DNA of 64,000 nt from the NCBI GenBank assembly GCA_041749375.1, contig JBGTBN010000149.1:3014-67013 (forward strand), in the 5' to 3' direction. Shown in pieces: positions 1 to 31,683 of the stretch. The stretch comes from Spirochaetota bacterium (GTDB lineage: Bacteria; Spirochaetota; UBA4802; UBA5550). Below the pieces are notes generated by a model. The model was not told where the DNA came from. It made no database searches and worked only from the letters and a program-made list of their open reading frames with translations. A program made the translations under genes and the position numbers. Every line of letters begins with the position of its first letter. Positions within the stretch are counted from its first letter, which is position 1.

Positions 1-266
1 TTTATTATATTATTAACAATACCATGATTTTCATGGATACTATTAAACATTATAAAATAATAGTTATTCAAAAAATCTATGATTTCTCTCGGCGATGAAT
101 TGTTTATCAAAGACGGCCAACCTTCAATTTTAAGCATAACAATTGTTAGTTGTTTTACTTCACCTGCAACGGTTAAAAAATTATCTCCTTCCTCAATAAT
201 CTTTGTATAAACATATTCGCCAGCAAATTTCTTAAGTGCTTTAATATACAGGTTTTCTTTAAACAA
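1..266 (-). CDS. putative immunity protein for the adjacent Rhs toxin tip (partial; its C-terminus lies beyond the left window edge)
   Basis: Not in the supplied ORF track. The reverse strand reads AGGTG-N4-TTG (start codon 266..264), then an open frame to position 1: LFKENLYIKALKKFAGEYVYTKIIEEGDNFLTVAGEVKQLTIVMLKIEGWPSLINNSSPREIIDFLNNYYFIMFNSIHENHGIVNNII. It begins 18 nt after the toxin stop (285-287), on the same strand and with the same AT-rich composition. The function is inferred from position only, and the start codon is uncertain. Confidence 0.45.
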   Translation of the reverse strand, partial: MFKENLYIKALKKFAGEYVYTKIIEEGDNFLTVAGEVKQLTIVMLKIEGWPSLINNSSPREIIDFLNNYYFIMFNSIHENHGIVNNII

Positions 267-284
267 ATTTCACCTACTCTATTA

Positions 285-1505
285 TTATTTAATAAAAGTT
301 GTCTTGCCGTCTTTCACTCTATATGATTCAAAGTCAAATCCTTTCTCAATATCTCCTCTTCCCCAATGTTGATTATCAACCAATTTATCATATGCTTCCC
401 AATCTTTCTTTTTAATTGCTTTATTTATATCTGAAATAGTTTTATTAGATTCTTTTACCTGTTTATGTCTTTCAACTATTTTTTTAACTGTTGTATATTT
501 GGGGGGGGTATTAGTTGTTTCTTCTAAAACATTTCCTAATTCTTTTAATTTTGTTCCTTGAACAGCATCTTCCGCAACGCTACCACCACTGATTTTTCCA
601 GCAATTTTCTTAGTAAGCCATGCTTGCCCCAAAATTCCCGTTAAATTCCCAGCAGATCTAAAGATATTATTTGATACATAATCACCCAATGCGCCTAATT
701 TTCTTTCTGCATATTTACTATAACTACCATCAATAATATTAGCTTCTGCCTTTGAATTATCATAAACTTCTCGCAAACCATGCCCAATATCGACAGCCTT
801 ATTATATGCATAAACAAAAGGACCTGCTGCAGTATACTTTTTACAAGTATCAACTATTTCTTTTACTTCAGCTTTAAGTTGATTAATTGAAGGTAAAGTA
901 TCTTTTATTCCTTCAAGATAATTACTACCCGCATTACTTAATTTACTTAAGATCCCTTCATCCTTTATTTCTTCAGCATGACCAGTTGGATCTTTATAAA
1001 TAATCGGATTGTTTCTACAATATGAAAATCTATTCCATGATTGAGTTGAGAACTGATCCGGCACCACCGTATCCGCAGTCACAAATCTCCCGATCTCCGG
1101 GTCATAATGCCGTGCGTTGTAGAAATAATACCCGCTCTCCTTGTCCAGCTCCTGGGAGTTGTACTTCGGCGCGTTCTTCTCGTTGCCTTCCGTGATCCAT
1201 GACTCACCAAAGGGAAGATACTCGTGAGCGGTAACCACCTGGCCCGAGTCATTGGTCACCACCTTTACAGAGTCCACCTGGTCGGTCAGGTAATACTGCG
1301 CCTCGCCGTTGGGCAGGACCGCGGCCATGCGCACCCCGTTCAGGTACACGTTGTTCACGCCGAACCCGGTGTCGCCCACGGGCGTGCCGTCCAGCTCCCT
1401 CACGGTCTCCACGCTGAAATACATGGACGGGTTCAGGAGCTGCACGCGGCGCTCCACGCCGTCCACCTCCAGCCGCGCCTCGCGGCGCACGCGGAAGTGA
1501 CCCAC
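285..1505 (-). CDS. Rhs/YD-repeat core end plus variable C-terminal toxin tip (truncated, orphan-type cassette)
   Basis: RHS repeat-associated core signature: YYLTDQVDSVKVVTNDSGQVVTAHEYLPFGE, YYFYNARHYDPEIGRFVTADT, NRFSYCRNNPIIYKDPTGH (DPxGx boundary at 978-992). Only about 175 aa of core are present, followed by about 230 aa of unrecognised sequence. The listed start is an internal GTG, and the frame is closed upstream by TGA at 1578-1580. Confidence 0.8.
   Translation of the reverse strand: MGHFRVRREARLEVDGVERRVQLLNPSMYFSVETVRELDGTPVGDTGFGVNNVYLNGVRMAAVLPNGEAQYYLTDQVDSVKVVTNDSGQVVTAHEYLPFGESWITEGNEKNAPKYNSQELDKESGYYFYNARHYDPEIGRFVTADTVVPDQFSTQSWNRFSYCRNNPIIYKDPTGHAEEIKDEGILSKLSNAGSNYLEGIKDTLPSINQLKAEVKEIVDTCKKYTAAGPFVYAYNKAVDIGHGLREVYDNSKAEANIIDGSYSKYAERKLGALGDYVSNNIFRSAGNLTGILGQAWLTKKIAGKISGGSVAEDAVQGTKLKELGNVLEETTNTPPKYTTVKKIVERHKQVKESNKTISDINKAIKKKDWEAYDKLVDNQHWGRGDIEKGFDFESYRVKDGKTTFIK
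501..508. repeat. G8/C8 homopolymer tract inside the toxin-tip coding sequence
   Basis: ggggggggt at 501-508 sits in a stretch that is otherwise strongly AT-rich. On the coding strand it encodes the PP of TNTPPKYTT. Confidence 0.9.
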
Positions 1506-1590
1506 AGGATGTGGGAAATGTCGCGGAGGACAGGACGTCCGAGAGCGACCCCTGGTCGTCGTAGTAGTAGCGGCCGATCACCTGGTTGGT
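1506..1590 (-). pseudogene. frameshifted upstream remnant of the Rhs/YD core
   Basis: A different reverse frame (track ORF 1249..1581) reads NQVIGRYYYDDQGSLSDVLSS, which is YD-repeat-like (Y-x-Y-D-x-x-G-x-L). The frame of 285-1505 reads low-complexity SAATTTTTRGRSRTS over the same bases. GC-rich Rhs-like sequence stops abruptly near 1590. Confidence 0.5.
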
Positions 1591-1797
1591 GTTGTGATTT
1601 AAAAGATCTAACTTAATATTTCGATTATGATTGTATTATTTCAACCAATTGTCAACACTATTGTTCCTCAATCACGAAAATCGATGCGCCCAGAAAACAT
1701 CTTGACGCCAGCTATCTCAATCTATACTTTCATCGCCGGGACATGCAGCCTGACAGATAAAAATGTCCTCGCACCAGTCGCCAGAGGGAACGTTCTG

Positions 1798-4374
1798 ATG
1801 GACACAAAAATCACCCCTGCCATGAAGCAGTACCTCGACATGAAGAAGCAGTATCCGGAGGAGATACTCTTTTTCCGCATGGGCGATTTCTACGAGATGT
1901 TTTTCGACGACGCGCATGTCGCGTCACGCATCCTGGATATCGCCCTCACCTCGCGGCAGAACGACATTCCCATGTGCGGCATTCCGTATCACGCGGCGGA
2001 GAGCTACATCGCGCGGCTCATCAAGGCCGGGAAACGCGTTGCCATCTGCGAACAGATGGAGACCGTTCCCTCGGCAGGCACCGTTGTCAGGCGGGAAGTC
2101 GTCCGCGTCATAACCCCGGGCACCGTGGTCGAAGCGAACCTCCTCCAGTCGGACGAGAACAATTTCCTCGCGTCTGTCATAATCGGCAGCGACCGCATCG
2201 GTCTCTCGTTCGTCGACATCTCCACCGGGGACTTTTTCCTCTCTTCAATCGATAAGTCGATCGAGCTTTTCCGCGGCGAAATGGCCAAGTTCTCGCCGCG
2301 CGAGGCCGTGTTTTACGGAGGCACCGCCCCGGACGGCGAGGCATATGCCGAATATCTTTCCCAGCGGGACATACCGCTCTACCGGATCAACGAATGGCTG
2401 TACGACACGGAATTCATGATCTCGGTCATATCGGAAACCTTCCGGATCTCCGGCACCAAGGGCCTGGGCATTACCGACGACCTTGACATCATGGCAGCGG
2501 GCTCCATTCTGCAGTATCTCAGGGACACGCACAAGAAAACCATCGACCATCTCAAGTTCCCCAAAACCATCGTGTCCCGCGACTACATGGTGCTCGACGA
2601 CGCAACTATATCCAACCTCGAGCTGGTACGCAATACCACCGACGGATCTAAAAACCGCACTCTCTTTTCCGTCCTGGACTATACCCGCACTGCAATGGGA
2701 AAGCGCACGCTCGAGCGTAACGTGCTCCAGCCGCTCCTGGACACCGCCGCGATCGAAAAACGCCTTGATACAGTGCAATACCTTCACGAGTTTCACGAGT
2801 TGACCGGGAAGCTCGTGCAGCACCTGAGAGAGATCCAGGACATGGAGCGCCTCCTCTCCCGCTTCATGATCGGCAGGATTTTCCCCAGAAATTTCATCGC
2901 GCTGATGAGCTCCATCTCGGCCTGCATGAAGATACAATCGCTGCTCGCAGAACAGCCGCATGAGAGCATGACCCGCCTCTCGGATGCCATGCCCGACCTG
3001 TCGGAGCTCGCGGCCATGATCAGGGCAGCGGTGGAGGACGAGCCGGCCCTCTCCCCGGAGCACGGACGCGTGATCAGGAAAGGCTTCAACCCGGAGCTGG
3101 ACCGCATCTACGAATTGAAAACAAACGCAAAGAACTGGATCGTCGAATACGAGGCCGAGGAGAAAAAGAGGCTCGGCATGTCCTCGCTGAAAATCCGGTA
3201 CAATAAGATCCTCGGATACTTTATCGAGATCAGCAAGGGACAGGCGACCGGGATCCCGGAAACCTATTACCGGAAGCAGACGCTCGTCAGTTCCGAGCGG
3301 TATACCACGGAAAAGCTGCAGAAGTTCGAGTCTGAGATCCTCTCCGCGTCCGAGACAATCCAGCGTATCGAGAACGAGGAGATCGACCGGCTCCTCCGGG
3401 CTGTCATAGCAGAGCGGGACCGCCTCCAGTCCCTGGCAGGCACCATTGGAGAAATAGACTGCCACTGCTCCCTGGCTCTCTGCGCCCTCGAGAACCGCTT
3501 CGTCAGGCCTTTGTTCGATACCGGCAACAGGACACACATCAAGGAGGGACGCCATCCGGTCGTGGAGAAATACTATACCCGCGAGGTGTTTATCCCCAAT
3601 GACATCAACCTCGACGGCGACGAGAACATCATCAAGATCATCACCGGCCCGAACATGTCCGGCAAATCCACGTATATCCGAATGGCCGCCATCATCCAGC
3701 TGATGTCGCAGATCGGATCGTACGTCCCTGCGCGGGAGGCAAGCATTTCGGTCGCCGACCGTATTTTCACCAGGATCGGCGCCTCCGACAACATATCGCG
3801 CGGGGAATCGACCTTCCTTGTGGAGATGAACGAAACAGCCGGCATCCTCAACAATGCGACAGATAAAAGCCTCATCATAATGGACGAGATCGGGCGTGGT
3901 ACGAGCACCTATGACGGCCTGTCCATCGCGTGGGCGGTGGTCGAATATATTCTCCGCTACCTGAAAGCAAAGACACTGTTCGCAACACATTACCATGAGC
4001 TCACCCAGCTGGGCGGAAGGCGCGGCATCGTCAACTATACAGTCATGGTCAAGGAACACCTGAGCGGTGTCGACTTCCTTCACAAAGTGGTGCGCGGGGC
4101 TGCTGACAAGTCATACGGCATACATGTCGCGAACCTCGCCGGCATACCGAAACCGATTATCGCCAGGGCCGAGCAGATGCTTCAAAAGCTCGAGCGGGGC
4201 GGAAAAAGCATCAAACCGGGCACACTCGACGCAGAGACTCCTTCCGGTCAGCTCGAGATATTCAACGCTTCGAACCATGTCGTGGTTCAGGCCATCAAGG
4301 CGATTGATCTCAATACCATCACCCCGATAGAAGCATTGAATGAACTGAGCAGGCTGAAAAAACTGATTGAATAA
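1798..4374 (+). CDS. mutS: DNA mismatch repair protein MutS
   Basis: N-terminus MDTKITPAMKQYLDMKKQYPEEILFFRMGDFYEMFFDDA, Walker A GPNMSGKST, MDEIGRGTSTYDG, ATHYHEL. The track ORF starts at 1627, but the conserved MutS N-terminus begins at ATG 1798. Confidence 0.95.
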   Translation: MDTKITPAMKQYLDMKKQYPEEILFFRMGDFYEMFFDDAHVASRILDIALTSRQNDIPMCGIPYHAAESYIARLIKAGKRVAICEQMETVPSAGTVVRREVVRVITPGTVVEANLLQSDENNFLASVIIGSDRIGLSFVDISTGDFFLSSIDKSIELFRGEMAKFSPREAVFYGGTAPDGEAYAEYLSQRDIPLYRINEWLYDTEFMISVISETFRISGTKGLGITDDLDIMAAGSILQYLRDTHKKTIDHLKFPKTIVSRDYMVLDDATISNLELVRNTTDGSKNRTLFSVLDYTRTAMGKRTLERNVLQPLLDTAAIEKRLDTVQYLHEFHELTGKLVQHLREIQDMERLLSRFMIGRIFPRNFIALMSSISACMKIQSLLAEQPHESMTRLSDAMPDLSELAAMIRAAVEDEPALSPEHGRVIRKGFNPELDRIYELKTNAKNWIVEYEAEEKKRLGMSSLKIRYNKILGYFIEISKGQATGIPETYYRKQTLVSSERYTTEKLQKFESEILSASETIQRIENEEIDRLLRAVIAERDRLQSLAGTIGEIDCHCSLALCALENRFVRPLFDTGNRTHIKEGRHPVVEKYYTREVFIPNDINLDGDENIIKIITGPNMSGKSTYIRMAAIIQLMSQIGSYVPAREASISVADRIFTRIGASDNISRGESTFLVEMNETAGILNNATDKSLIIMDEIGRGTSTYDGLSIAWAVVEYILRYLKAKTLFATHYHELTQLGGRRGIVNYTVMVKEHLSGVDFLHKVVRGAADKSYGIHVANLAGIPKPIIARAEQMLQKLERGGKSIKPGTLDAETPSGQLEIFNASNHVVVQAIKAIDLNTITPIEALNELSRLKKLIE

Positions 4375-4469
4375 GCGGGCGTGCCGGTCAGAGCACACGC
4401 GCCAGCTGTCTATTATGAACAATTTCAACGAATTGATGCAGATAAGGCCGCAGAGTCATGGTATAATCG

Positions 4470-4492
4470 AGGCATGTGGTAAATGCCTTTTT
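4470..4492 (+). terminator. weak hairpin plus T-run downstream of mutS
   Basis: aggcat-gtggtaa-atgcct followed by ttttt. The stem is only 5-6 bp and lies about 95 nt after the mutS stop. Confidence 0.3.
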
Positions 4493-4588
4493 ACTTGACA
4501 CGCCCGGCATAAAAAACTAGAAATTACTTGATTTTTTGCCGAATTTAATAATAGTGCACTATATCATCTGATTTGCTAAAGAGGAAGA

Positions 4589-5809
4589 ATGGCCGATACC
4601 CAATTTAAAGTAGAAAATTATCTCGCAAATTCTTTTATCATTGTTGAAGGTAAAAAGAACGCCAGTAATTTCTATATAATTCTCAAGGGAAAAGTCAAAG
4701 TCGCCAAGGAAAACCCCGTTGTAGCTACCGAGCCGTATTCGATCCTCGGGCCCGGCGACTTTTTCGGCGTCGTATCGTGCATGAGCGCACACAACCGCAT
4801 TGAGTCGGCCGTAGCGCTGGAAAACGTGTCGCTCATCTCCGTAGAAAGGGAAAAGTTCGGCCTCCTGATCCAGAAAAATCCGACCGTAGCGATGAAGATC
4901 ATTCGTTTTTTCAGCCGCAAGCTCAGGGATTTCGACCAGGCGATCACCAACCTCACTTTCAAGAACGTGGCCGAGGAGGATCCCTCGCACCTCTTCAACA
5001 TCGGGGAATACTATATTAAAAAGAAAATCATCAATCATGCCACCTACGCGTACCAGAGATATTTGCAGTACCGTCCCGAGGGCGAAAACCGCGATAAGGC
5101 GATCCAGCGCCTCCAGACCCTGAAAGCACCGATGAAGGCCCCGGCCCAGGGTCAGATGGTCGGCATGAACCGCCGCTATAGAGACAACACCATGATATTC
5201 TGCGAATACGAGCCGGGCGAAGAGCTCTTTATCATACAGTCGGGCAAGGTAAAAATCACGAAGATAGTGAACGAGGAAGTGCTCCTGGCTGTGCTCAAGG
5301 CCGGTGATATATTCGGCGAGATGGCCATCCTTGACAACAAGCCGCGCAGCGCATCAGCCATTACATTTGGAGACGTGGAAGTGCTCGCCATCAACAAATC
5401 CAACTTCGAGGGCATGGTCCAGGCCCAGCCCCAGCTGGCTACCCGTCTTATCCAGATCCTAAGCGAGAGGATATGGACAGCCTACCGTCAGCTCGAGAAC
5501 CTGATGATCCGCGACACACTCGGACGCATCTATGACACGCTCCTCATCCAGCTTGAAAAACACAAGATCAAGATGGAAGCCAAACAGGTACATAACTTCG
5601 AGTTCGGCACCAAGGAGCTCATCAACATGGTCGGCCTCACCCCTGAGAAAGGAGACATGTTCATCGTCCAGCTCCTCGAAGACAAGCACTTCACCCTCGA
5701 GCACGGAAAGATAATCTGCACGGACCTTCTCGAACTCGAGAAAACCGTTCAGTTCTTCAAGAAAAAATCCACGATGGAAAGGAAACGTGAAGCCAGCAAG
5801 AATTCTTAA
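4589..5809 (+). CDS. Crp/Fnr-like regulator with two cyclic-nucleotide-binding domains
   Basis: Two cNMP-binding modules (GDFFGVVSCMSAH...; GDIFGEMAILDNKPRSASAI) and a C-terminal Crp-type wHTH-like segment (ELINMVGLTPEKGDMFIVQLLEDKHFTLEHGKI). Confidence 0.8.
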   Translation: MADTQFKVENYLANSFIIVEGKKNASNFYIILKGKVKVAKENPVVATEPYSILGPGDFFGVVSCMSAHNRIESAVALENVSLISVEREKFGLLIQKNPTVAMKIIRFFSRKLRDFDQAITNLTFKNVAEEDPSHLFNIGEYYIKKKIINHATYAYQRYLQYRPEGENRDKAIQRLQTLKAPMKAPAQGQMVGMNRRYRDNTMIFCEYEPGEELFIIQSGKVKITKIVNEEVLLAVLKAGDIFGEMAILDNKPRSASAITFGDVEVLAINKSNFEGMVQAQPQLATRLIQILSERIWTAYRQLENLMIRDTLGRIYDTLLIQLEKHKIKMEAKQVHNFEFGTKELINMVGLTPEKGDMFIVQLLEDKHFTLEHGKIICTDLLELEKTVQFFKKKSTMERKREASKNS

Positions 5810-7844
5810 GTTTTCCTTCCGGTTCCTGTTTGCAGCTCTAATTCTCCTGATTGTCGGCGCCCTGCTTATTATTACTCTCTATCCCGCCGAAAATATTTTA
5901 AAGCTGGTCACATCGAACGCGGAAGAGGTCCTGGGCAGGAAAGTAACGATCAGGGACATCGGCTACAGCCTGGGCGGAATTTCCCTGGACGGGCTGGTTA
6001 TTTACGAGTCGGATGAAAAGTCACCGGTCCTGGCGAGCGTTGAGAGCGCGGACATCCGGTTCTCATTCCTGTCGCTCCTGAGGTCCGAGTTCGACGCAAC
6101 GGCCATCACGCTGAAAAAGCCGCTCTGCAACATATCGTTCAACGACGCGGGGGAGTCCAACATCGAGAGCCTGATCACGAGCCTTTCGAAGAACAAGGGC
6201 TCGGGCATGTCGGCGAAGATATCCAAAATTTCGCTTTCAGACGCCACTCTTGCGCTGACCAACGCGCCCGCCTACCTCGCCCCTCTCGCCGGCACCTATA
6301 ACATAGATGCCGACGTGTATCTCAAAAAAAAGATCGAGGTTCGGGATTGCAGGCTCAGGCTGCCTGAAAACCGGGGCGTGCTGCATCCCGAGATGGATAT
6401 CGAGATATTGAAAGGAGATTTCAAAATCACCGGTTCTGTCAACCTGGAAAACGCCTCGCTCCTGTGGGTATACCGATGGGGAACGAACCTGACACTGCCC
6501 TACAATATCATCAACGGCTCGGTTACGAACCTGATCATTACCAAGAACTACGTAAAGGGCAACGCCAACGCCACGTCAACGCTTCTCAATACGCCTAAAA
6601 TCCTGCATGCTGACGGTTTCTGCCACGTGGACATCGCGGGACGAACCGTTCTCATTGCCGAGGCGCAGGGCCACATTGAAAAATCCTCCTTTTTCGTGGA
6701 GAATCTTCATTTTACTTTCTCCGGGAGCCTGATAAAATTCAGCATAAATAAAATAGCAGCATCGATAACTGACACGATGCCGCTGCTCAAATTCATGCCC
6801 CCGAAACTGTTCGGGTATGCAGAGGGCAGTCTCCGTTACGGCGGCGGCGTCTACAACGGCACGCTTGCGGTCAGCAATGCCGGTTATGACCCGGCGACAA
6901 AGCTCATCAGCGGCCTCTCGACGACCATTACCGTCAATAATAACATTTTCCAGAAGACCGGCATCCCGTTCAATTTCTATGGGAATCCCTGCACACTTTC
7001 TATCGCGTCTACCGACCGTTCCCTGAAGCGGCTCCATGTCAACCTGGCCGCCGACAGGATATCGATCGAATCCCTGACCGATAAATTTCCGAAATCCGAC
7101 GCTTCCCTATCAGTCCCGATTGAGATACTTGGCTCAATTAATGTAACGCGCGCCCAGTACGGCCAGTACCAGATGGGAAATGTCCAGTTGCAGTACAACC
7201 TGTCCGGCAGCACCCTTGCCATCAATGGTTTCCAGTTCTATTTTTCAGACGGAAAAATCACGGGCAGCGGCTCGATCAACATGGCACAGGCGCGGCCGCT
7301 GGCCACTCTCCAGCTCCAGATAAGCAATCTTGTCGTGCAGAAAGCTATCGCTTCAAATGATAAGTTCAGGAACCGGTTTTTCGGAATAGCAGGGGGCAAA
7401 TCGTTAATCGAGTTCGAGGTGAGCGGCGACATTTTCAAGACTGCCCGGGGTAACGCCGAGATCACCATTGACAGGGGAAAACTGGTCGACACCGGCATCC
7501 AGAACGGCCTGGGCCTGCTGCTTGCCGAGCTGAAATACAAGCTCCGGGACCTGGAGTTTAACAAGATATACGGGAACATCGATATCAGGGGGACTAATTA
7601 TCTCATCAATTCGTTTATATTTAATTCCAACAACGTCCGTCTGAAAATAACGGGCGCATTCGACCAGAAGCTCGTTGCCGCCCCCCTCAACATACAACTT
7701 GAGTTCACCAGGGAGTTTATCCAGGACCTTCCCGGCGCGCTGAACCTGACCCTGAACAGGTACCTCCGGGGGGACTGGTACATTATCCCGTTCGTGATGA
7801 ACGGCGACATGACAAGCAGCCAGAACGTTCGCCGGGTACAATAA
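5787..7844 (+). CDS. AsmA-family-like membrane-anchored protein
   Basis: N-terminal TM anchor, then LGRKVTIRDIGYSLGGISLDGLVIYE-type AsmA-like N-terminal pattern, followed by a long beta-rich body. GTG start with upstream GGAAAGG. Overlaps the preceding gene by 23 nt. Confidence 0.55.
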   Translation: MKPARILKFSFRFLFAALILLIVGALLIITLYPAENILKLVTSNAEEVLGRKVTIRDIGYSLGGISLDGLVIYESDEKSPVLASVESADIRFSFLSLLRSEFDATAITLKKPLCNISFNDAGESNIESLITSLSKNKGSGMSAKISKISLSDATLALTNAPAYLAPLAGTYNIDADVYLKKKIEVRDCRLRLPENRGVLHPEMDIEILKGDFKITGSVNLENASLLWVYRWGTNLTLPYNIINGSVTNLIITKNYVKGNANATSTLLNTPKILHADGFCHVDIAGRTVLIAEAQGHIEKSSFFVENLHFTFSGSLIKFSINKIAASITDTMPLLKFMPPKLFGYAEGSLRYGGGVYNGTLAVSNAGYDPATKLISGLSTTITVNNNIFQKTGIPFNFYGNPCTLSIASTDRSLKRLHVNLAADRISIESLTDKFPKSDASLSVPIEILGSINVTRAQYGQYQMGNVQLQYNLSGSTLAINGFQFYFSDGKITGSGSINMAQARPLATLQLQISNLVVQKAIASNDKFRNRFFGIAGGKSLIEFEVSGDIFKTARGNAEITIDRGKLVDTGIQNGLGLLLAELKYKLRDLEFNKIYGNIDIRGTNYLINSFIFNSNNVRLKITGAFDQKLVAAPLNIQLEFTREFIQDLPGALNLTLNRYLRGDWYIIPFVMNGDMTSSQNVRRVQ

Positions 7845-7898: not shown

Positions 7899-8423
7899 TC
7901 AGTATTTTTTGTCCGCGTATTCGAGCCAGCCGCCTGCTTCCACGAGCTGCCTGTCGAAACCGGATATGGTGAAGTCGATCCGCTCTGTTTCTCCGCCCGC
8001 ATGTACTGCGTACTGGCCCCTGTCGAAATCCGTCTCGATTGTTATCTCGCCGGTCGCCCCGAGCTTGAACAGCCGGTCAATCGTATCGGGATGAAGCTCC
8101 ACTGCAAGCATCCCCCCATTATACATGTTCTGCCGGAATATGCGGGCAAAGCTCTCGGCGATGACGAGGTAAATCCCGTTCACCTCCAGCGCCCAGGGAG
8201 CGTGCTCCCGCGACGAGCCGCAGCCGAAGTTCGAGCGGGTTATGACGACGCTTTTTCCGGGGATATCGCGCCGCGGCTCGAATCCGTCGAGCTTGAGGCC
8301 TTCGAGAAGGTACGGCTTCAGTGCTTCCTTGGTGATCTCGGTAAGATACCGGGCCGGTATTATCTCATCCGTATTTATGTCAGTCCTGTCGAGAAGGAGA
8401 GCCTTTCCGCTGAAGTTTTTCAT
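7899..8423 (-). CDS. leuD: 3-isopropylmalate/homoaconitate-type dehydratase small subunit
   Basis: GCGSSREHAPWAL motif, 174 aa, immediately downstream of the large subunit. Confidence 0.9.
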   Translation of the reverse strand: MKNFSGKALLLDRTDINTDEIIPARYLTEITKEALKPYLLEGLKLDGFEPRRDIPGKSVVITRSNFGCGSSREHAPWALEVNGIYLVIAESFARIFRQNMYNGGMLAVELHPDTIDRLFKLGATGEITIETDFDRGQYAVHAGGETERIDFTISGFDRQLVEAGGWLEYADKKY

Positions 8424-9720: not shown

Positions 9721-12215
<2,495 letters not shown>

Positions 12216-12219
<4 letters not shown>

Positions 12220-13271
12220 TGAACCTCATACTGATGCAGGGTCTTCCGTATATAGTCGGCGCGATACTCATCGCATTCGTTGGTGCTCTTGAACAGGAGA
12301 TTATAACATCTCTGTAAATGGGCCCATTGTATGTTGACCATCAGGTCATTGACTATCTTGACGTCCATGTTTTTCAATACCGCCATGATGATCCCGAGCC
12401 GGATGTTTGAAATATGGTCCATCGATTCGATATAGGTCAGCCGCCGGGCGTGGAGGAGGATCCCGAGCGAGCGCCAGATACGGTCCTCTATCTCGAGACG
12501 TGAGAGGGAAAAGAACTCGTCCCGGAGCGCGTCCTCTGCCGCCATGATCCTTGCGAGGACCTCGTCCACGGTCTCAATAATATCGACTTCCGAAAGGCCG
12601 AGCGACACCCGGTTCGAAAGCTGGTAGAGACTGCCCAGGGTCTTGCTTGAAGCGCCGATCGTACCCTTGATCTCCACGAGGTGCTTTTTTCCCTCAGGGA
12701 TGAGCTCGCTCATCCTGTTTTTCATGGTTATGACAGGCAGGTGCACCAATACTGAAATGCGAAGCGCCGTGCCCAGGTTGGAGGCGCATGACGTCAGGTA
12801 TCCCAGCTCCTCTGAAAAAGCGTACGGGACGAAACGGTTCAGCTCCGTGTCTACCCTGTCCGCGGTACGATATGCCTCCATGAATTGAAGACCGGGCCGG
12901 ATCACCTGGATGCGGAAGTGGTCTTCCTCGTTTACAAGTATGGTAAAATCTTCGACAGTATCGATCGCCACCAGGCTGTTGTCGGAAACCTCGATCTCGT
13001 AGGTTATGACATTGCGCTCCCTGAGGAACCTTTTTTCGCCGCTGTCGATCTCGCGCAGGTCCATGACGGTGATATGGTCGCGGTAAGCCGACTCCTGCGC
13101 AAAACGATATATTGCATCGCTGACCGGATGCGATTCATCGACGAGCATGCGGTTAGGGAACGGCACGGATTGCATGTTCCGGGCCAGGCGCGCACGGGTC
13201 GAAATCACTATATGGCTGAAGGGCCCGCATGACGTCCAGAAGCCCGACTGTTGCAACACTTCCTCAAACAC
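12216..13271 (-). CDS. mcsB: protein arginine kinase McsB
   Basis: Guanido-kinase motifs NEEDHFRIQ and CASNLGTALR; 351 aa. Confidence 0.9.
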
Positions 13272-13804
13272 TAAGCACTCCCCTTTTCGCGTTCCATTTC
13301 ATTGATCCTGTCCCTCAGCTGCGCGGCATCCTCGTACCGCTCTGCATAAACCGCGCGACCGAGCTGGTTCCTCAATTCATCGATAGATTTTTTTACCGTT
13401 ACGATCCTGGGTGTGCGTGCATGCGCCTCTACGGTGATGCTGCCCGGTGCGGAGGGCTGTTTGCCGACATGTCTGGTCGCGCCGTGATATCCTGCTATCA
13501 CGGATTTCAACGAATCATCGAGGTGCAGGTAACAGTCCGGACAGCCCAGCCTGTTTTCCCTGCCATAGTCCATGAATGAGAGCCCGCAGGACTTGCACAC
13601 CGACCCGGCCGAAATTTCATCTATTTCGCTGACATCAAGAAACGAGAGCATCTCGGGAATCGACAGAGAAAAGTTAGAGAGCTTCGAATTGAGGCCGATC
13701 TCACGGGCACACGACTCGCATAGATGGACCTCTGACTTCACGTCTTTGATTATCTCGGTCAGGTGTATCGTAGCTTCTATGTTCTTGCATCGTTCACAAA
13801 GCAT
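13271..13804 (-). CDS. mcsA: McsA-like activator (CxxC zinc fingers plus UVR domain)
   Basis: CERC...CESC...CKSC...CPDC cysteine pairs and a C-terminal UVR motif (YEDAAQLRDRINEME). Overlaps the mcsB start by 1 nt. Confidence 0.85.
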   Translation of the reverse strand: MLCERCKNIEATIHLTEIIKDVKSEVHLCESCAREIGLNSKLSNFSLSIPEMLSFLDVSEIDEISAGSVCKSCGLSFMDYGRENRLGCPDCYLHLDDSLKSVIAGYHGATRHVGKQPSAPGSITVEAHARTPRIVTVKKSIDELRNQLGRAVYAERYEDAAQLRDRINEMEREKGSA

Positions 13805-29512: not shown

Positions 29513-29596
29513 CTGCTGCCTGTTTTCCTCTGCCCAAATTTCAAATCCAGATGATGGGAAAAGCCGGGGGATAATTTGGCAAGTGTTTTTCGATAT

Positions 29597-29624
29597 AAAA
29601 AAACTCCGTTGACGGAGTTTTTTA
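29597..29624 (-). terminator. rho-independent terminator after the 148-aa lipoprotein gene
   Basis: aaaaaaACTCCGttgaCGGAGTttttt, with symmetric A/T flanks; 9 nt from the stop at 29633. Confidence 0.6.
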
Positions 29625-29632
29625 CGGCGGCT

Positions 29633-30079
29633 TTAAAAGGTTCCGTGGTTATCCAGATCAAAATTGAGGATCATTATTTCAGTATCCGCCACTGGCAAAG
29701 GATTGAGGCTATCGCTGGTGCGATCGATCTTACCCTGCCAGCCCTGGTAGAAATCAACGCCGGGCGTTGGCAGGCCATCGCCGTCCGCATCATACCATAC
29801 CTCAAAAAAGAGCGGGTAATCACCGACGTTGAGCTGGGGTGTAATCACCGAGCTCATGGGGAAACCAAGCGACATCCAGGGCGTTGCCCAGTCATTCGCG
29901 ACATAGAACACGATATAGATTTTATTCGCACTGCTCACGGGATAGGTAACTTCATCAAGCTTGACGTTCAGAATCAATTGCGGGATTTTCGCCTTTGTCG
30001 AATCGCATCCGGGGGCCGCAAAAACGGCTGCCGTTATCAGTAATGCCAGTCCCGATGTAATGGCTCTTTTCTTTATCAT
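29633..30079 (-). CDS. hypothetical exported/lipoprotein-like protein (paralog A)
   Basis: Signal peptide ending AAPGC. Shares YIVFYVANDWATPWMSLGF...WYDADGDGLPTPG with the upstream neighbour. Confidence 0.6.
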   Translation of the reverse strand: MIKKRAITSGLALLITAAVFAAPGCDSTKAKIPQLILNVKLDEVTYPVSSANKIYIVFYVANDWATPWMSLGFPMSSVITPQLNVGDYPLFFEVWYDADGDGLPTPGVDFYQGWQGKIDRTSDSLNPLPVADTEIMILNFDLDNHGTF

Positions 30080-30104
30080 GCCAGCTCCCGTGCATCTCCC
30101 AGTT

Positions 30105-30590
30105 TTAATAGGTTATTCCCACATCAAGCGTGATCGTGATCTCACGCCATTCGAGCGGAAAAAATACAATTTCCGTCATTTCCTCCGGGAAGGGAAGAAC
30201 GGAATGGTTCGCGTTTACATAACCCGTGCACGGTTCTCCAGGGTCAAGCATACCATTCCCGTTAGTTGCTGGTGTTGAGCCGTCTGCCTGGGCATCCCAG
30301 AATGCAGCCACATAGGTTGAAAAGGTGCCGACCACGGGATTGATGAGGGTTCGTGAATTCGCTCCAAACTGCAGCCAGGGGCTAAGCCACGTGCTGTCTA
30401 CGTAGAACATGAGATAAGCTTTGTTAGTATCATCAATGATAATGGTTGATTCAGACCCTGCCGCAATATCAATATGCACAATAAGTACTGGCGACTGGTC
30501 ATCAACATCATCCATATTGCCGCATGAATTAAGTCCGGCGAGTGCTGATATGGCTATAATGAGCCCGAGTACTATTGCATGCTTTTTCAC
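30105..30590 (-). CDS. hypothetical exported/lipoprotein-like protein (paralog B)
   Basis: Signal peptide ending GLNSC. YLMFYVDSTWLSPWLQFGA...FWDAQADGSTPATNG aligns with paralog A. Confidence 0.6.
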   Translation of the reverse strand: MKKHAIVLGLIIAISALAGLNSCGNMDDVDDQSPVLIVHIDIAAGSESTIIIDDTNKAYLMFYVDSTWLSPWLQFGANSRTLINPVVGTFSTYVAAFWDAQADGSTPATNGNGMLDPGEPCTGYVNANHSVLPFPEEMTEIVFFPLEWREITITLDVGITY

Positions 30591-30744
30591 TGTTTTTTCC
30601 TGAGCATTACATCTGCTATATACATTATCTTAATATTTGTTTATTAATTTAATACTTAAATGCTCTCATGTCAAAAAAATATTGTAAGGTCAGACAGGAA
30701 AGAATATAATTGCATCGTATCATTTATACCTGAACTAATATACC

Positions 30745-31683
30745 ATGAAGCAACTATTTTGTCAATTATTGATACTTCTTCTAATATTTTTTACGGAAGA
30801 CTCTTATTCCGGGAACACGGGCGGTTCTGCCTGGGGCTACATTGTCCATACGGACAACCTGTCCCGACCATATCTCCTGAATATCATGAACAGGTTTTCA
30901 GTGATCTGCATAACCGGATTCAGCCTTGAGGATAACGGAACCATCAGGATGTCTGCTGCTTCGTCTATCGATACCATCAGGGAGCTGACCTCAAAAAAAG
31001 GAGTTACACTCTACCCCCTTATATCCTTCAAGTCTGCTCGTTCCGGTCGCCGCATTCTCTCTGACGAACACACACGAAAGAAAGCCGCTCGCAGCATCGC
31101 TGCCATGTCAGACAGGCTGGGGTTCCCCGGCGTTCATCTGGATTTTGAGTTCCTTCCCCCTGAATACGCGAAACTATTAGGACTCCTTCTTGACGATCTC
31201 AGGAAGGACTACAGCGGAAAAATTACCATGGCTGTTTTCCCGAAGATCGGTTTCCCCTCTGCATGGAGCGGTTTTCATGACATGGCCGTCATCGCGCCCC
31301 GGGTCGACGCAGTGGTCATGATGTGCTACGATCTCAATGGCTCTCACACGGGCCCCGGTCCGGTTACCGATGTGAAATGGGCAGAAAAAAATATTAAATA
31401 CGCACTGAAGCACATTAAGCCCGGCCGGCTCTGGCTCGGGATACCCGCATACGGATACCGCTGGTGCGGAAACAAGGCCACTGCCCTCTCTTCAAAACAT
31501 GGCGTAAAGCTGCCAGAAAAGCACAATGCCCGGAGGGACCCATCAGGCAACCTTTTCTATAAATCCGGGAATTCCTGTCTCACATATATATCCGACAGTC
31601 ATACCCGCTCGTTGTTGAGAGAACTGGCCGGCAGGTATGGTCTTGCAGGCACAGCTGTCTGGCGTATTGGCTTTGAAGAATGA
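30745..31683 (+). CDS. secreted glycoside hydrolase family 18-like protein
   Basis: Signal peptide, GVHLDFEF (DxxDxDxE-type catalytic strand, partly degenerate), and a GH18-like TIM-barrel pattern (MCYDL, LGIPAYGY). Confidence 0.65.
   Translation: MKQLFCQLLILLLIFFTEDSYSGNTGGSAWGYIVHTDNLSRPYLLNIMNRFSVICITGFSLEDNGTIRMSAASSIDTIRELTSKKGVTLYPLISFKSARSGRRILSDEHTRKKAARSIAAMSDRLGFPGVHLDFEFLPPEYAKLLGLLLDDLRKDYSGKITMAVFPKIGFPSAWSGFHDMAVIAPRVDAVVMMCYDLNGSHTGPGPVTDVKWAEKNIKYALKHIKPGRLWLGIPAYGYRWCGNKATALSSKHGVKLPEKHNARRDPSGNLFYKSGNSCLTYISDSHTRSLLRELAGRYGLAGTAVWRIGFEE

Follow-up and report, generated by a model that had tools for sequence, protein, structure and literature searches.

A probable solitary orphan Rhs C-terminal cassette next to mutS in a Spirochaetota bacterium

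Orphan modules of rhs genes are fragments without initiation signals that are linked to immunity genes and re-armed by recombination with a main rhs gene (PMC3967940). In the rhs orphan of Salmonella Typhimurium LT2 (STM0292) with its rhsI-orphan, a short 3' piece of the core, devoid of initiation and export signals, carries an unrelated tip bounded by a DPxG motif, a small open reading frame (ORF) follows directly downstream, and deployment of the tip requires recombination with a full-length rhs gene through the core that the two share (PMC3967940). Silent dissociated tips have also been described in enterobacteria, where the C-terminal displacement model envisages a GC-rich core of variable length joined, with a drop in G+C content, to a non-homologous low-GC tip; most of these tips have no start site, some have degenerated further, and they form a horizontally shared pool (PMC2935791). 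The orphan cdiA-CT/cdiI modules of contact-dependent growth inhibition (CDI) systems are likewise stored pairs of toxin tip and immunity gene that keep upstream homology, and orphan core fragments may contain in-frame stops (PMC3150448). Here we describe a locus at the left end of a 64-kb stretch of DNA from a Spirochaetota bacterium (contig JBGTBN010000149.1), referred to throughout as the window, in which the last part of an Rhs core, a variable tip and a co-oriented ORF lie divergent from mutS (Table 1).

We consider it probable that window 1-1593 is a solitary orphan cassette of the rhs-CT/rhsI type (CT, C-terminal), holding a silent stored tip. At the sequence level it combines a short core without initiation signals with a non-homologous tip that is marked by a drop in G+C content, and it shares with the STM0292 orphan the short 3' core, the missing initiation and export signals, the DPxG-bounded unrelated tip and an ORF, here of at least 88 codons, directly downstream. 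However, the Salmonella orphan lies directly downstream of its main rhs gene in a type VI secretion system (T6SS) island, whereas here mutS lies upstream, no parent gene is seen in the window and the core is frameshifted, and the toxin and immunity functions are putative. The enterobacterial dissociated tips have the same GC-rich core and low-GC tip, but they form strings behind an intact gene with an identical core, and the window fragment stands by itself. CDI modules differ in that the tip belongs to a CdiA filament with a VENN motif and not to an Rhs shell with a DPxG motif.

The Rhs identity of the fragment was confirmed with profile searches. NCBIfam TIGR03696 (Rhs_assc_core) matches residues 96-176 of the 406-amino acid (aa) ORF with E=7.2e-21 and 74.5 bits, against a cutoff of 32.5, and a PxxxxDPxG(L/H) motif closes the core, which identifies the ORF as the C-terminal end of a polymorphic toxin of the Rhs/YD-repeat type (YD, tyrosine-aspartate). 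The original prediction, made from the sequence without database searches, had read this place as the end of an Rhs/YD shell and had suggested a search with a hidden Markov model (HMM) of the RHS core as a check; the TIGR03696 match and the DPTGH motif bear it out. A Pfam-A scan of the 406-aa ORF returned no RHS family; the precomputed annotation of the protein database assigns PF25023 (TEN_YD-shell) to the protein.

The retained core comes to about 188 codons, of which 173 are in frame (978-1496) and 15 lie in another frame (1549-1593), close to the roughly 175 residues first estimated. In a tblastn search with the C-terminal 1205 aa of the core from a full-length relative (the main gene of locus L010, see below), alignment was confined to residues 1036-1205 of the query, at window 1502-978. 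The 15-codon remnant NTNQVIGRYYYDDQG is identical to the homologous protein P0009 at 11 of its 15 residues (tblastn, E=4e-4) and is read in frame -1, the main block being in frame -2, so that the combined Rhs content corresponds to residues ~1022-1205 of the query. No Rhs homology was aligned by tblastn past window 1593, where the fragment meets a unique AT-rich spacer of ~205 nucleotides (nt) that separates it from the ATG of mutS, in agreement with the end near 1590 that had been proposed. Since the alignment ends at this point and the 64 kb contain no Rhs sequence elsewhere, the gene must have been cut short within the contig and not by its end.

The composition of the locus changes sharply within the fragment. 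The core has a G+C content of 0.63-0.70, compared with 0.27-0.31 for the tip and downstream ORF and ~0.53 for the remainder of the window. At third codon positions (GC3) the values are 0.75 for the core and 0.77 for mutS, against 0.157 for the tip and 0.227 for the downstream ORF, and every other gene of the window lies between 0.48 and 0.79. The segment formed by tip and ORF is the only clearly foreign segment of the window by composition, as the original prediction held when it called this the only clearly accessory locus. Elsewhere, three genes at window 29576-31683 have a GC3 of 0.48-0.56 compared with 0.58-0.79 in the others, a far milder departure than that of the Rhs tip.

The place of the exchange can be located closely. 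Nucleotide homology to all other Rhs loci compared stops at 1066-1072 (blastn end points of 1065-1072 in L004, L008, L009 and L010). At ~1070, which is some 30 codons 5' of DPTGH, G+C drops from 0.58 to 0.25, and identity to the closest relative, L001, falls to 58-67% across window 978-1076. As homology ends ~30 codons ahead of DPTGH, the exchangeable unit includes the cleavage motif.

The tip itself, of 230 aa, is AT-rich, predicted to be all-helical and free of transmembrane segments, its hydropathy maximum being 0.47 (Kyte-Doolittle, KD19) with no hydrophobic segment. A word-indexed search among 5.8e9 clusters found only the tip itself, and a full HMMER search of 1.84e9 representative proteins again returned the tip, besides one match (P0122) that proved to be a spurious hit to a eukaryotic repeat protein. 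There was also no meaningful match in the PDB (sequence search), Pfam, NCBIfam, PADLOC or PHROG, and pairwise alignment with five other tips was not significant; a similarity of ~60 aa to a tip of L004 was rejected because it is carried by the shared core. A single-sequence AlphaFold2 (AF2) model is all-helical with a mean predicted confidence (pLDDT) of 42. The reading frame remains open over 230 codons in DNA of ~30% G+C, where composition gives ~0.08 stops per codon, and we estimate the chance of such a frame staying open at ~1e-8. The tip, whose length is that of the ~230-aa tip originally described, thus appears from these searches to be a new sequence without relatives in a cassette of an otherwise well-known kind. 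It may be a soluble helical toxin domain that would act after Rhs-type delivery.

In loci of this kind the immunity gene usually lies just after the toxin stop and has its own Shine-Dalgarno (SD) sequence. The co-oriented ORF that had been noted behind the tip is indeed present: it starts with TTG (266-264) 18 nt past the toxin stop and is preceded by AGGTGA. From its position, co-orientation and shared composition, it most likely encodes the cognate immunity protein. The ORF is absent from the protein database, which suggests that the left end of the window is also the end of the contig.

Another identity for this ORF would be a degenerate class III nucleotidyl-cyclase-like protein of the AT-rich island, in which case the true immunity gene, if any, would lie further left. 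Pfam Guanylate_cyc aligns with residues 36-82 (profile positions 5-50) at E=0.0048, and the four PDB sequences that match best each belong to the class III cyclases, with the beginning of the catalytic domain aligned in register. However, the Pfam score of 16.9 bits is below the cutoff of 21.9, the PDB matches have E values of 0.2-0.7, and the first metal-binding aspartate is replaced by lysine (MLKIEGW versus SDLRGFT), so that the ORF falls short of class III nucleotidyl cyclases (PF00211) both in score and at this residue; the position of the second aspartate is outside the window. Where a cyclase would have a beta strand, the AF2 model is all-helical, with a low pLDDT of 61; PADLOC gave no cyclase match, and a reading as a Pycsar-type cyclase was rejected on these two grounds. 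The cyclase resemblance is therefore weak and unconvincing, and with the ORF sitting 18 nt behind the toxin stop in the standard immunity position with its own SD, we hold the cyclase-like identity to be improbable. Two cyclic-nucleotide-binding domains (PF00027, E=4e-41) are encoded by the gene directly past mutS (window 4589-5809), but its composition resembles that of the host, and nothing evident connects it with the faint cyclase similarity of the cassette ORF.

Whether the fragment could be made and exported in its present state is another matter. It contains no ATG, its GTG codons at 1505 and 1581 both lack an upstream SD, and none was found ahead of any internal start. There is also no complete YD-repeat shell (more than 1000 aa) and no N-terminal delivery/plug region. 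With over 90% of the shell and all N-terminal delivery domains missing, no ATG or convincing ribosome-binding site and a frameshifted core, the fragment could not be an export-competent toxin alone. A search of window 1-2000 for RNA elements of Rfam found none.

The cassette might instead work inside the cell. The tip, with its short core leader, and the ORF behind it would then be expressed from a local promoter as an addiction or growth-control pair resembling a toxin-antitoxin (TA) module. There is a precedent in Salmonella, where the main and orphan rhs tips have been reported to act inside the cell as a growth-control pair (PMC7043789). In the window, a promoter-like site reads into the fragment from the spacer and more such sites lie inside the AT-rich tip, and the GTG at 1505 with which the 406-aa ORF begins is created, in frame, by an insertion in the core. 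Nevertheless, promoter-like matches are expected in AT-rich DNA (13 were found in the AT-rich region against 4.6 expected, in a consensus scan that is not evidence of function), and no SD precedes either GTG 1505 or the internal starts, so that internal expression of this kind seems to us quite improbable.

The insertion just mentioned, of 49-52 nt, splits YYYDDQG from (H)FRVRRE and shows as a gap when the core is aligned to L001. All protein homologues run through this place uninterrupted, as IG(Q)YYYDDQGFRVR(K/R) and IGQYYYDDQGFRVRK, and so does L001. As well as providing the GTG (1505-1503), the insertion shifts the frame by +1; it is predicted to fold into two hairpins (-20.6 kcal/mol), and no further copy was found within the window or L001. 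Possibly it arose as a very small mobile element or by templated insertion. The first reading of the DNA had missed this insertion, as it had the swap junction at ~1070 and the solitary position of the fragment.

The closest relative of the cassette, L001, was found in a scan of a genome collection and belongs to the metagenome-assembled genome (MAG) Spirochaetota USMO_maxbin.118, with a core that is 88% identical in amino acids and 84% in nucleotides. Two further loci from a metagenome scan, L002 and L003, are 100% identical to L001, so that the arrangement is seen in three assemblies; two scans of viral contigs gave no relatives, and look-ups of the exact sequences of the 406-aa protein, of MutS and of the product of the next gene gave no record. 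The L001 core starts at ETYYDDQG, no more than ~10 codons away from the truncation point of the window, and past DPTGH it continues into a different AT-rich tip (alignment z=0.84 against the window tip), followed by a 181-aa ORF with a lipoprotein-like N-terminus that is unrelated to the window ORF. L001 is thus like the window in being solitary, not behind a main rhs gene, with an AT-rich unrelated tip and a downstream ORF, but unlike it in that its core is in frame and lacks the insertion and its cassette is bracketed by a direct repeat. The DNA around the L001 cassette has nothing in common with the window, and mutS is absent from it.

The direct repeat in L001 is of ~165 nt, is 90% identical between its copies at 9819-9983 and 11983-12150 (also 12487-12534), and encloses the Rhs-CT and the 181-aa ORF. 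It is made up of a 48-nt palindrome like those of repetitive extragenic palindromic (REP) elements and of the beginning of an IS200-like Y1 transposase gene (12139-12480; PF01797, E=7e-26), namely its 5' leader and initial four codons. In the upstream copy the repeat runs straight into the truncated core, which suggests a rearrangement or capture of the L001 cassette associated with REP elements and their RAYT transposases. Immediately to the left of the REP palindrome of that copy, at 9802-9821, lies an exact 20-nt copy of the core sequence GCATGGCCGCGGTCCTGCCC, 365 nt from its counterpart at 10167-10186 inside the core, which is unlikely by chance. A part for REP/RAYT elements in the window was rejected: it has neither the L001 palindrome nor a Y1 transposase nor any such repeat.

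Between the window and L001, the ratio of nonsynonymous to synonymous substitutions (dN/dS) in the core is 0.16, at a dS of 0.61. This low ratio indicates, as far as the comparison of the two sequences goes, that the Rhs core has evolved mostly under protein-level selection, from which we infer that it became detached from a functional rhs gene only recently or underwent gene conversion with one. The ratio also bears on whether the cassette is dead, that is, the functionless and decaying remains of a full-length rhs gene destroyed by deletion or rearrangement next to mutS. Such an origin would fit the frameshifting insertion in the retained core, the lack of an ATG or convincing SD, the absence of a parent rhs upstream, where the neighbour is the divergent mutS, and the lone, even doubly truncated, fragments found in relatives such as L009. 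It does not readily fit the core dN/dS of 0.16, nor the 230 codons of tip and at least 88 codons downstream that are intact in stop-rich DNA of ~30% G+C. Moreover, recombination further downstream is not hindered by an insertion in the 5' part of the core, and other orphans whose remaining core is defective have been described (PMC3150448). We regard a dead relic as unlikely.

A wider family surrounds these loci. A profile search with the core listed 132 short proteins, mainly from Spirochaetota and Leptospira and annotated 'RHS repeat-associated core domain'; as only proteins of up to 320 aa were listed, the cassette's own 406-aa protein being missing, the search is uninformative on full-length genes. 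Tips among these listed matches vary, being an M23 peptidase, LysM, YkuD or none. The canonical arrangement is found in L010, whose Rhs core belongs to the same family as that of the window (~50% aa identity). The L010 orphan cores are 94-98% identical to the main gene of that locus and nearly equal in length to the core of the window (starting at 1028 and 1038 on the L010 core, against ~1022/1036), and each is followed by a small ORF; unlike in the window, the main gene is present, and the tips are unrelated. L004 holds three orphan modules in an array, its contig ending just upstream of them; past the array lie an IS3-family transposase and then a fourth, uncalled Rhs core fragment (7905-8230). 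The orphan Rhs-CT/immunity type named in the original prediction accordingly finds support in the HMM match, the internal truncation, the L001 core that bears a different tip in three assemblies and the canonical array of L010.

Solitary fragments were found at five of the eight independent loci examined. The neighbours of the fragments in L009, L011 and L013 are TA genes (MazE/PIN, HEPN/NT, DUF4258) or a preceding 7TMR-DISM/SpoIIE histidine-kinase gene. The L009 fragment is also broken at its 3' side, where the called gene ends ~40 codons ahead of DPxGH and the core continues in other frames. Placed on the L010 core, the 5' ends of the fragments lie at ~1022/1036 for the window, 1033 for L001, 1028 and 1038 for the two L010 orphans and 1014 for L011 (genomic starts 9986 in L001, 7561 and 9950 in L010 and 1503 in L011, the window being the ~1022-1036 equivalent). 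Five fragments at four loci therefore start no more than ~25 codons apart (positions 1014-1038), near the same YYDDQGFRV repeat, and each keeps about 170-190 core codons. This apparent clustering hints at a preferred recombination boundary in the Rhs family, and it may be due to the 'hyperconserved' 3' block by which the displacement model explains where recombination takes place (PMC2935791).

A bolder proposal can be built on the clustered starts, on the solitary fragments at five of eight loci and on the one cassette bracketed by REP/Y1-transposase leader repeats. The mobile unit in this Spirochaetota Rhs family would be a defined cassette, made of the last ~180 core codons, the tip and the immunity gene, that moves between genomes and lands at non-rhs sites, in this case upstream of mutS, and the window tip would found a new toxin family with an immunity protein of cyclase fold. 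We offer this as a speculation that is quite improbable.

The same comparisons bear on the assembly. If the junction at ~1593, or the link between tip and mutS, were a metagenome mis-join through a repeated Rhs core, the real gene would be full length. The window does come from a metagenome-type contig (69,320 nt), its left end is probably the contig end, and assemblies typically break at conserved Rhs cores, as in L008 and L004, which end inside or next to such cores. A repeat-driven mis-join, however, would sit inside the conserved core and not at its 5' edge by a unique AT-rich spacer, the same type of fragment is identical in three independent assemblies of another lineage, and the five family fragments begin within ~25 codons of the same place. 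An artefact is, in our view, very improbable indeed.

Several observations weigh against a silent stored tip and have to be set beside those that favour it. The downstream ORF is incomplete, being still open at base 1, so that its length is 88 codons or more; the Pfam and NCBIfam scans linked it to no immunity family, and it is similar solely to class III cyclase domains, over their first ~50 positions. The tip resembles no known toxin among the databases searched, and its toxicity is putative. The frameshifting insertion could mark the onset of decay. Moreover, there is no second Rhs copy and no full-length rhs gene in the 64-kb window, which makes the recombination partner, absent within this distance, hypothetical. 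Finally, the fragment does not follow a main rhs gene in the same orientation; its upstream neighbour is the divergent mutS, hence the fragment is solitary and does not stand behind a parent. The original prediction had allowed for a parent rhs gene just to the left, which is unlikely in the canonical layout since left is downstream of the fragment.

With these points in mind, we propose the following course of events for an orphan cassette. The last ~188 codons of an Rhs/YD-shell gene would have been joined at ~1070 to an AT-rich tip acquired horizontally. Beside mutS, this may have come about by removal of the parent gene through deletion or rearrangement, or a piece made of core fragment, tip and immunity gene may have integrated illegitimately. 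By analogy with the orphans of Salmonella and Serratia, the tip would be stored silently, and RecA-type recombination of the core block at 1070-1496 with its counterpart in a full-length rhs gene at another place in the genome could re-arm it. Until then, the downstream gene might still give immunity against kin that deploy the toxin.

The neighbour of the cassette is a regular mutS. All five MutS domains are present, with E values down to 1.8e-82, and since MutS_I begins at residue 63 of the 915-aa longest ORF, the true start is taken to be the ATG at 1798. The adjacency to mutS is not recurrent in relatives and looks incidental. Further along the window (9724-13804, minus strand), genes for a ClpC-like AAA+ ATPase, an ATP:guanido phosphotransferase (McsB-like) and a UVR-motif protein (McsA-like) stand in a row and make up the arginine-kinase protein-quality-control operon that is best known from Firmicutes.

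Table 1. Features of the Rhs cassette and its surroundings in the window, and related Rhs loci
Sequence	Feature	Position	Strand	Details
Window	Rhs fragment ORF	285..1505	-	406 aa, GTG start; FRVRREARLEVDG...EYLPFGESW...YYFYNARHYDPEIGRFVTADT...NNPIIYKDPTGH, then 230 unrelated residues and a triple stop
Window	5'-most Rhs remnant	1549..1593	-	15 codons, NTNQVIGRYYYDDQG; frame differs from main block
Window	Insertion of 49-52 nt	1498..1549	-	GTCGCTCTCGGACGTCCTGTCCTCCGCGACATTTCCCACATCCTGTGGG(TCA); GGGTC direct repeat at its bounds; two hairpins
Window	In-frame Rhs core	978..1496	-	173 codons, FRVRREARLEVDG...NNPIIYKDPTGH; TIGR03696 match at 978-1220
Window	PxxxxDPxG(L/H) motif	978..1007	-	PIIYKDPTGH; core/toxin boundary, read from translation; conserved in all homologues
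Window	Swap junction	1066..1072	.	End points of nucleotide homology and drop in G+C
Window	Variable C-terminal tip, putative toxin	288..977	-	230 aa; stop 285-287
Window	Downstream ORF, putative immunity gene	1..266	-	TTG 266-264; AGGTGA 270-275; at least 88 codons
Window	Promoter-like site TTGACA-17-AATCAT (10/12)	1627..1655	-	In mutS-rhs spacer, reads into fragment; consensus scan
Window	mutS	1798..4374	+	Divergent from Rhs fragment; MutS domains I-V
L010 (JGI 3300058926)	Canonical rhs locus			2563-aa SpvB/FG-GAP/RHS protein with 234-aa ORF; orphans behind them, 416+135 aa and 208 aa
L004 (Spirochaetota MAG GCA_022704645.1)	Three orphan Rhs-CT modules in array	476-5548		Small ORF after each
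L015	Full-length rhs gene			Fragmented in low-coverage assembly
L009	Solitary fragment	10001-10965		Beside TA or histidine-kinase genes
L011	Solitary fragment	1503-2399		Beside TA or histidine-kinase genes
L013	Solitary fragment	5986-6780		Beside TA or histidine-kinase genes

The adjacency to mutS gives no sign of functional meaning, and the solitary state and shared core length do not change the current understanding of Rhs biology. Almost no published work on Rhs in Leptospira or Spirochaetes was found, so that the observations on the family may be of modest descriptive value. The cassette extends the repertoire of polymorphic toxins in Spirochaetota by one uncharacterised toxin tip, and probably also by an immunity protein for it, and together with the related loci it indicates that the orphan Rhs cassettes of this phylum are often solitary and tend to keep the same stretch of ~180 core codons.

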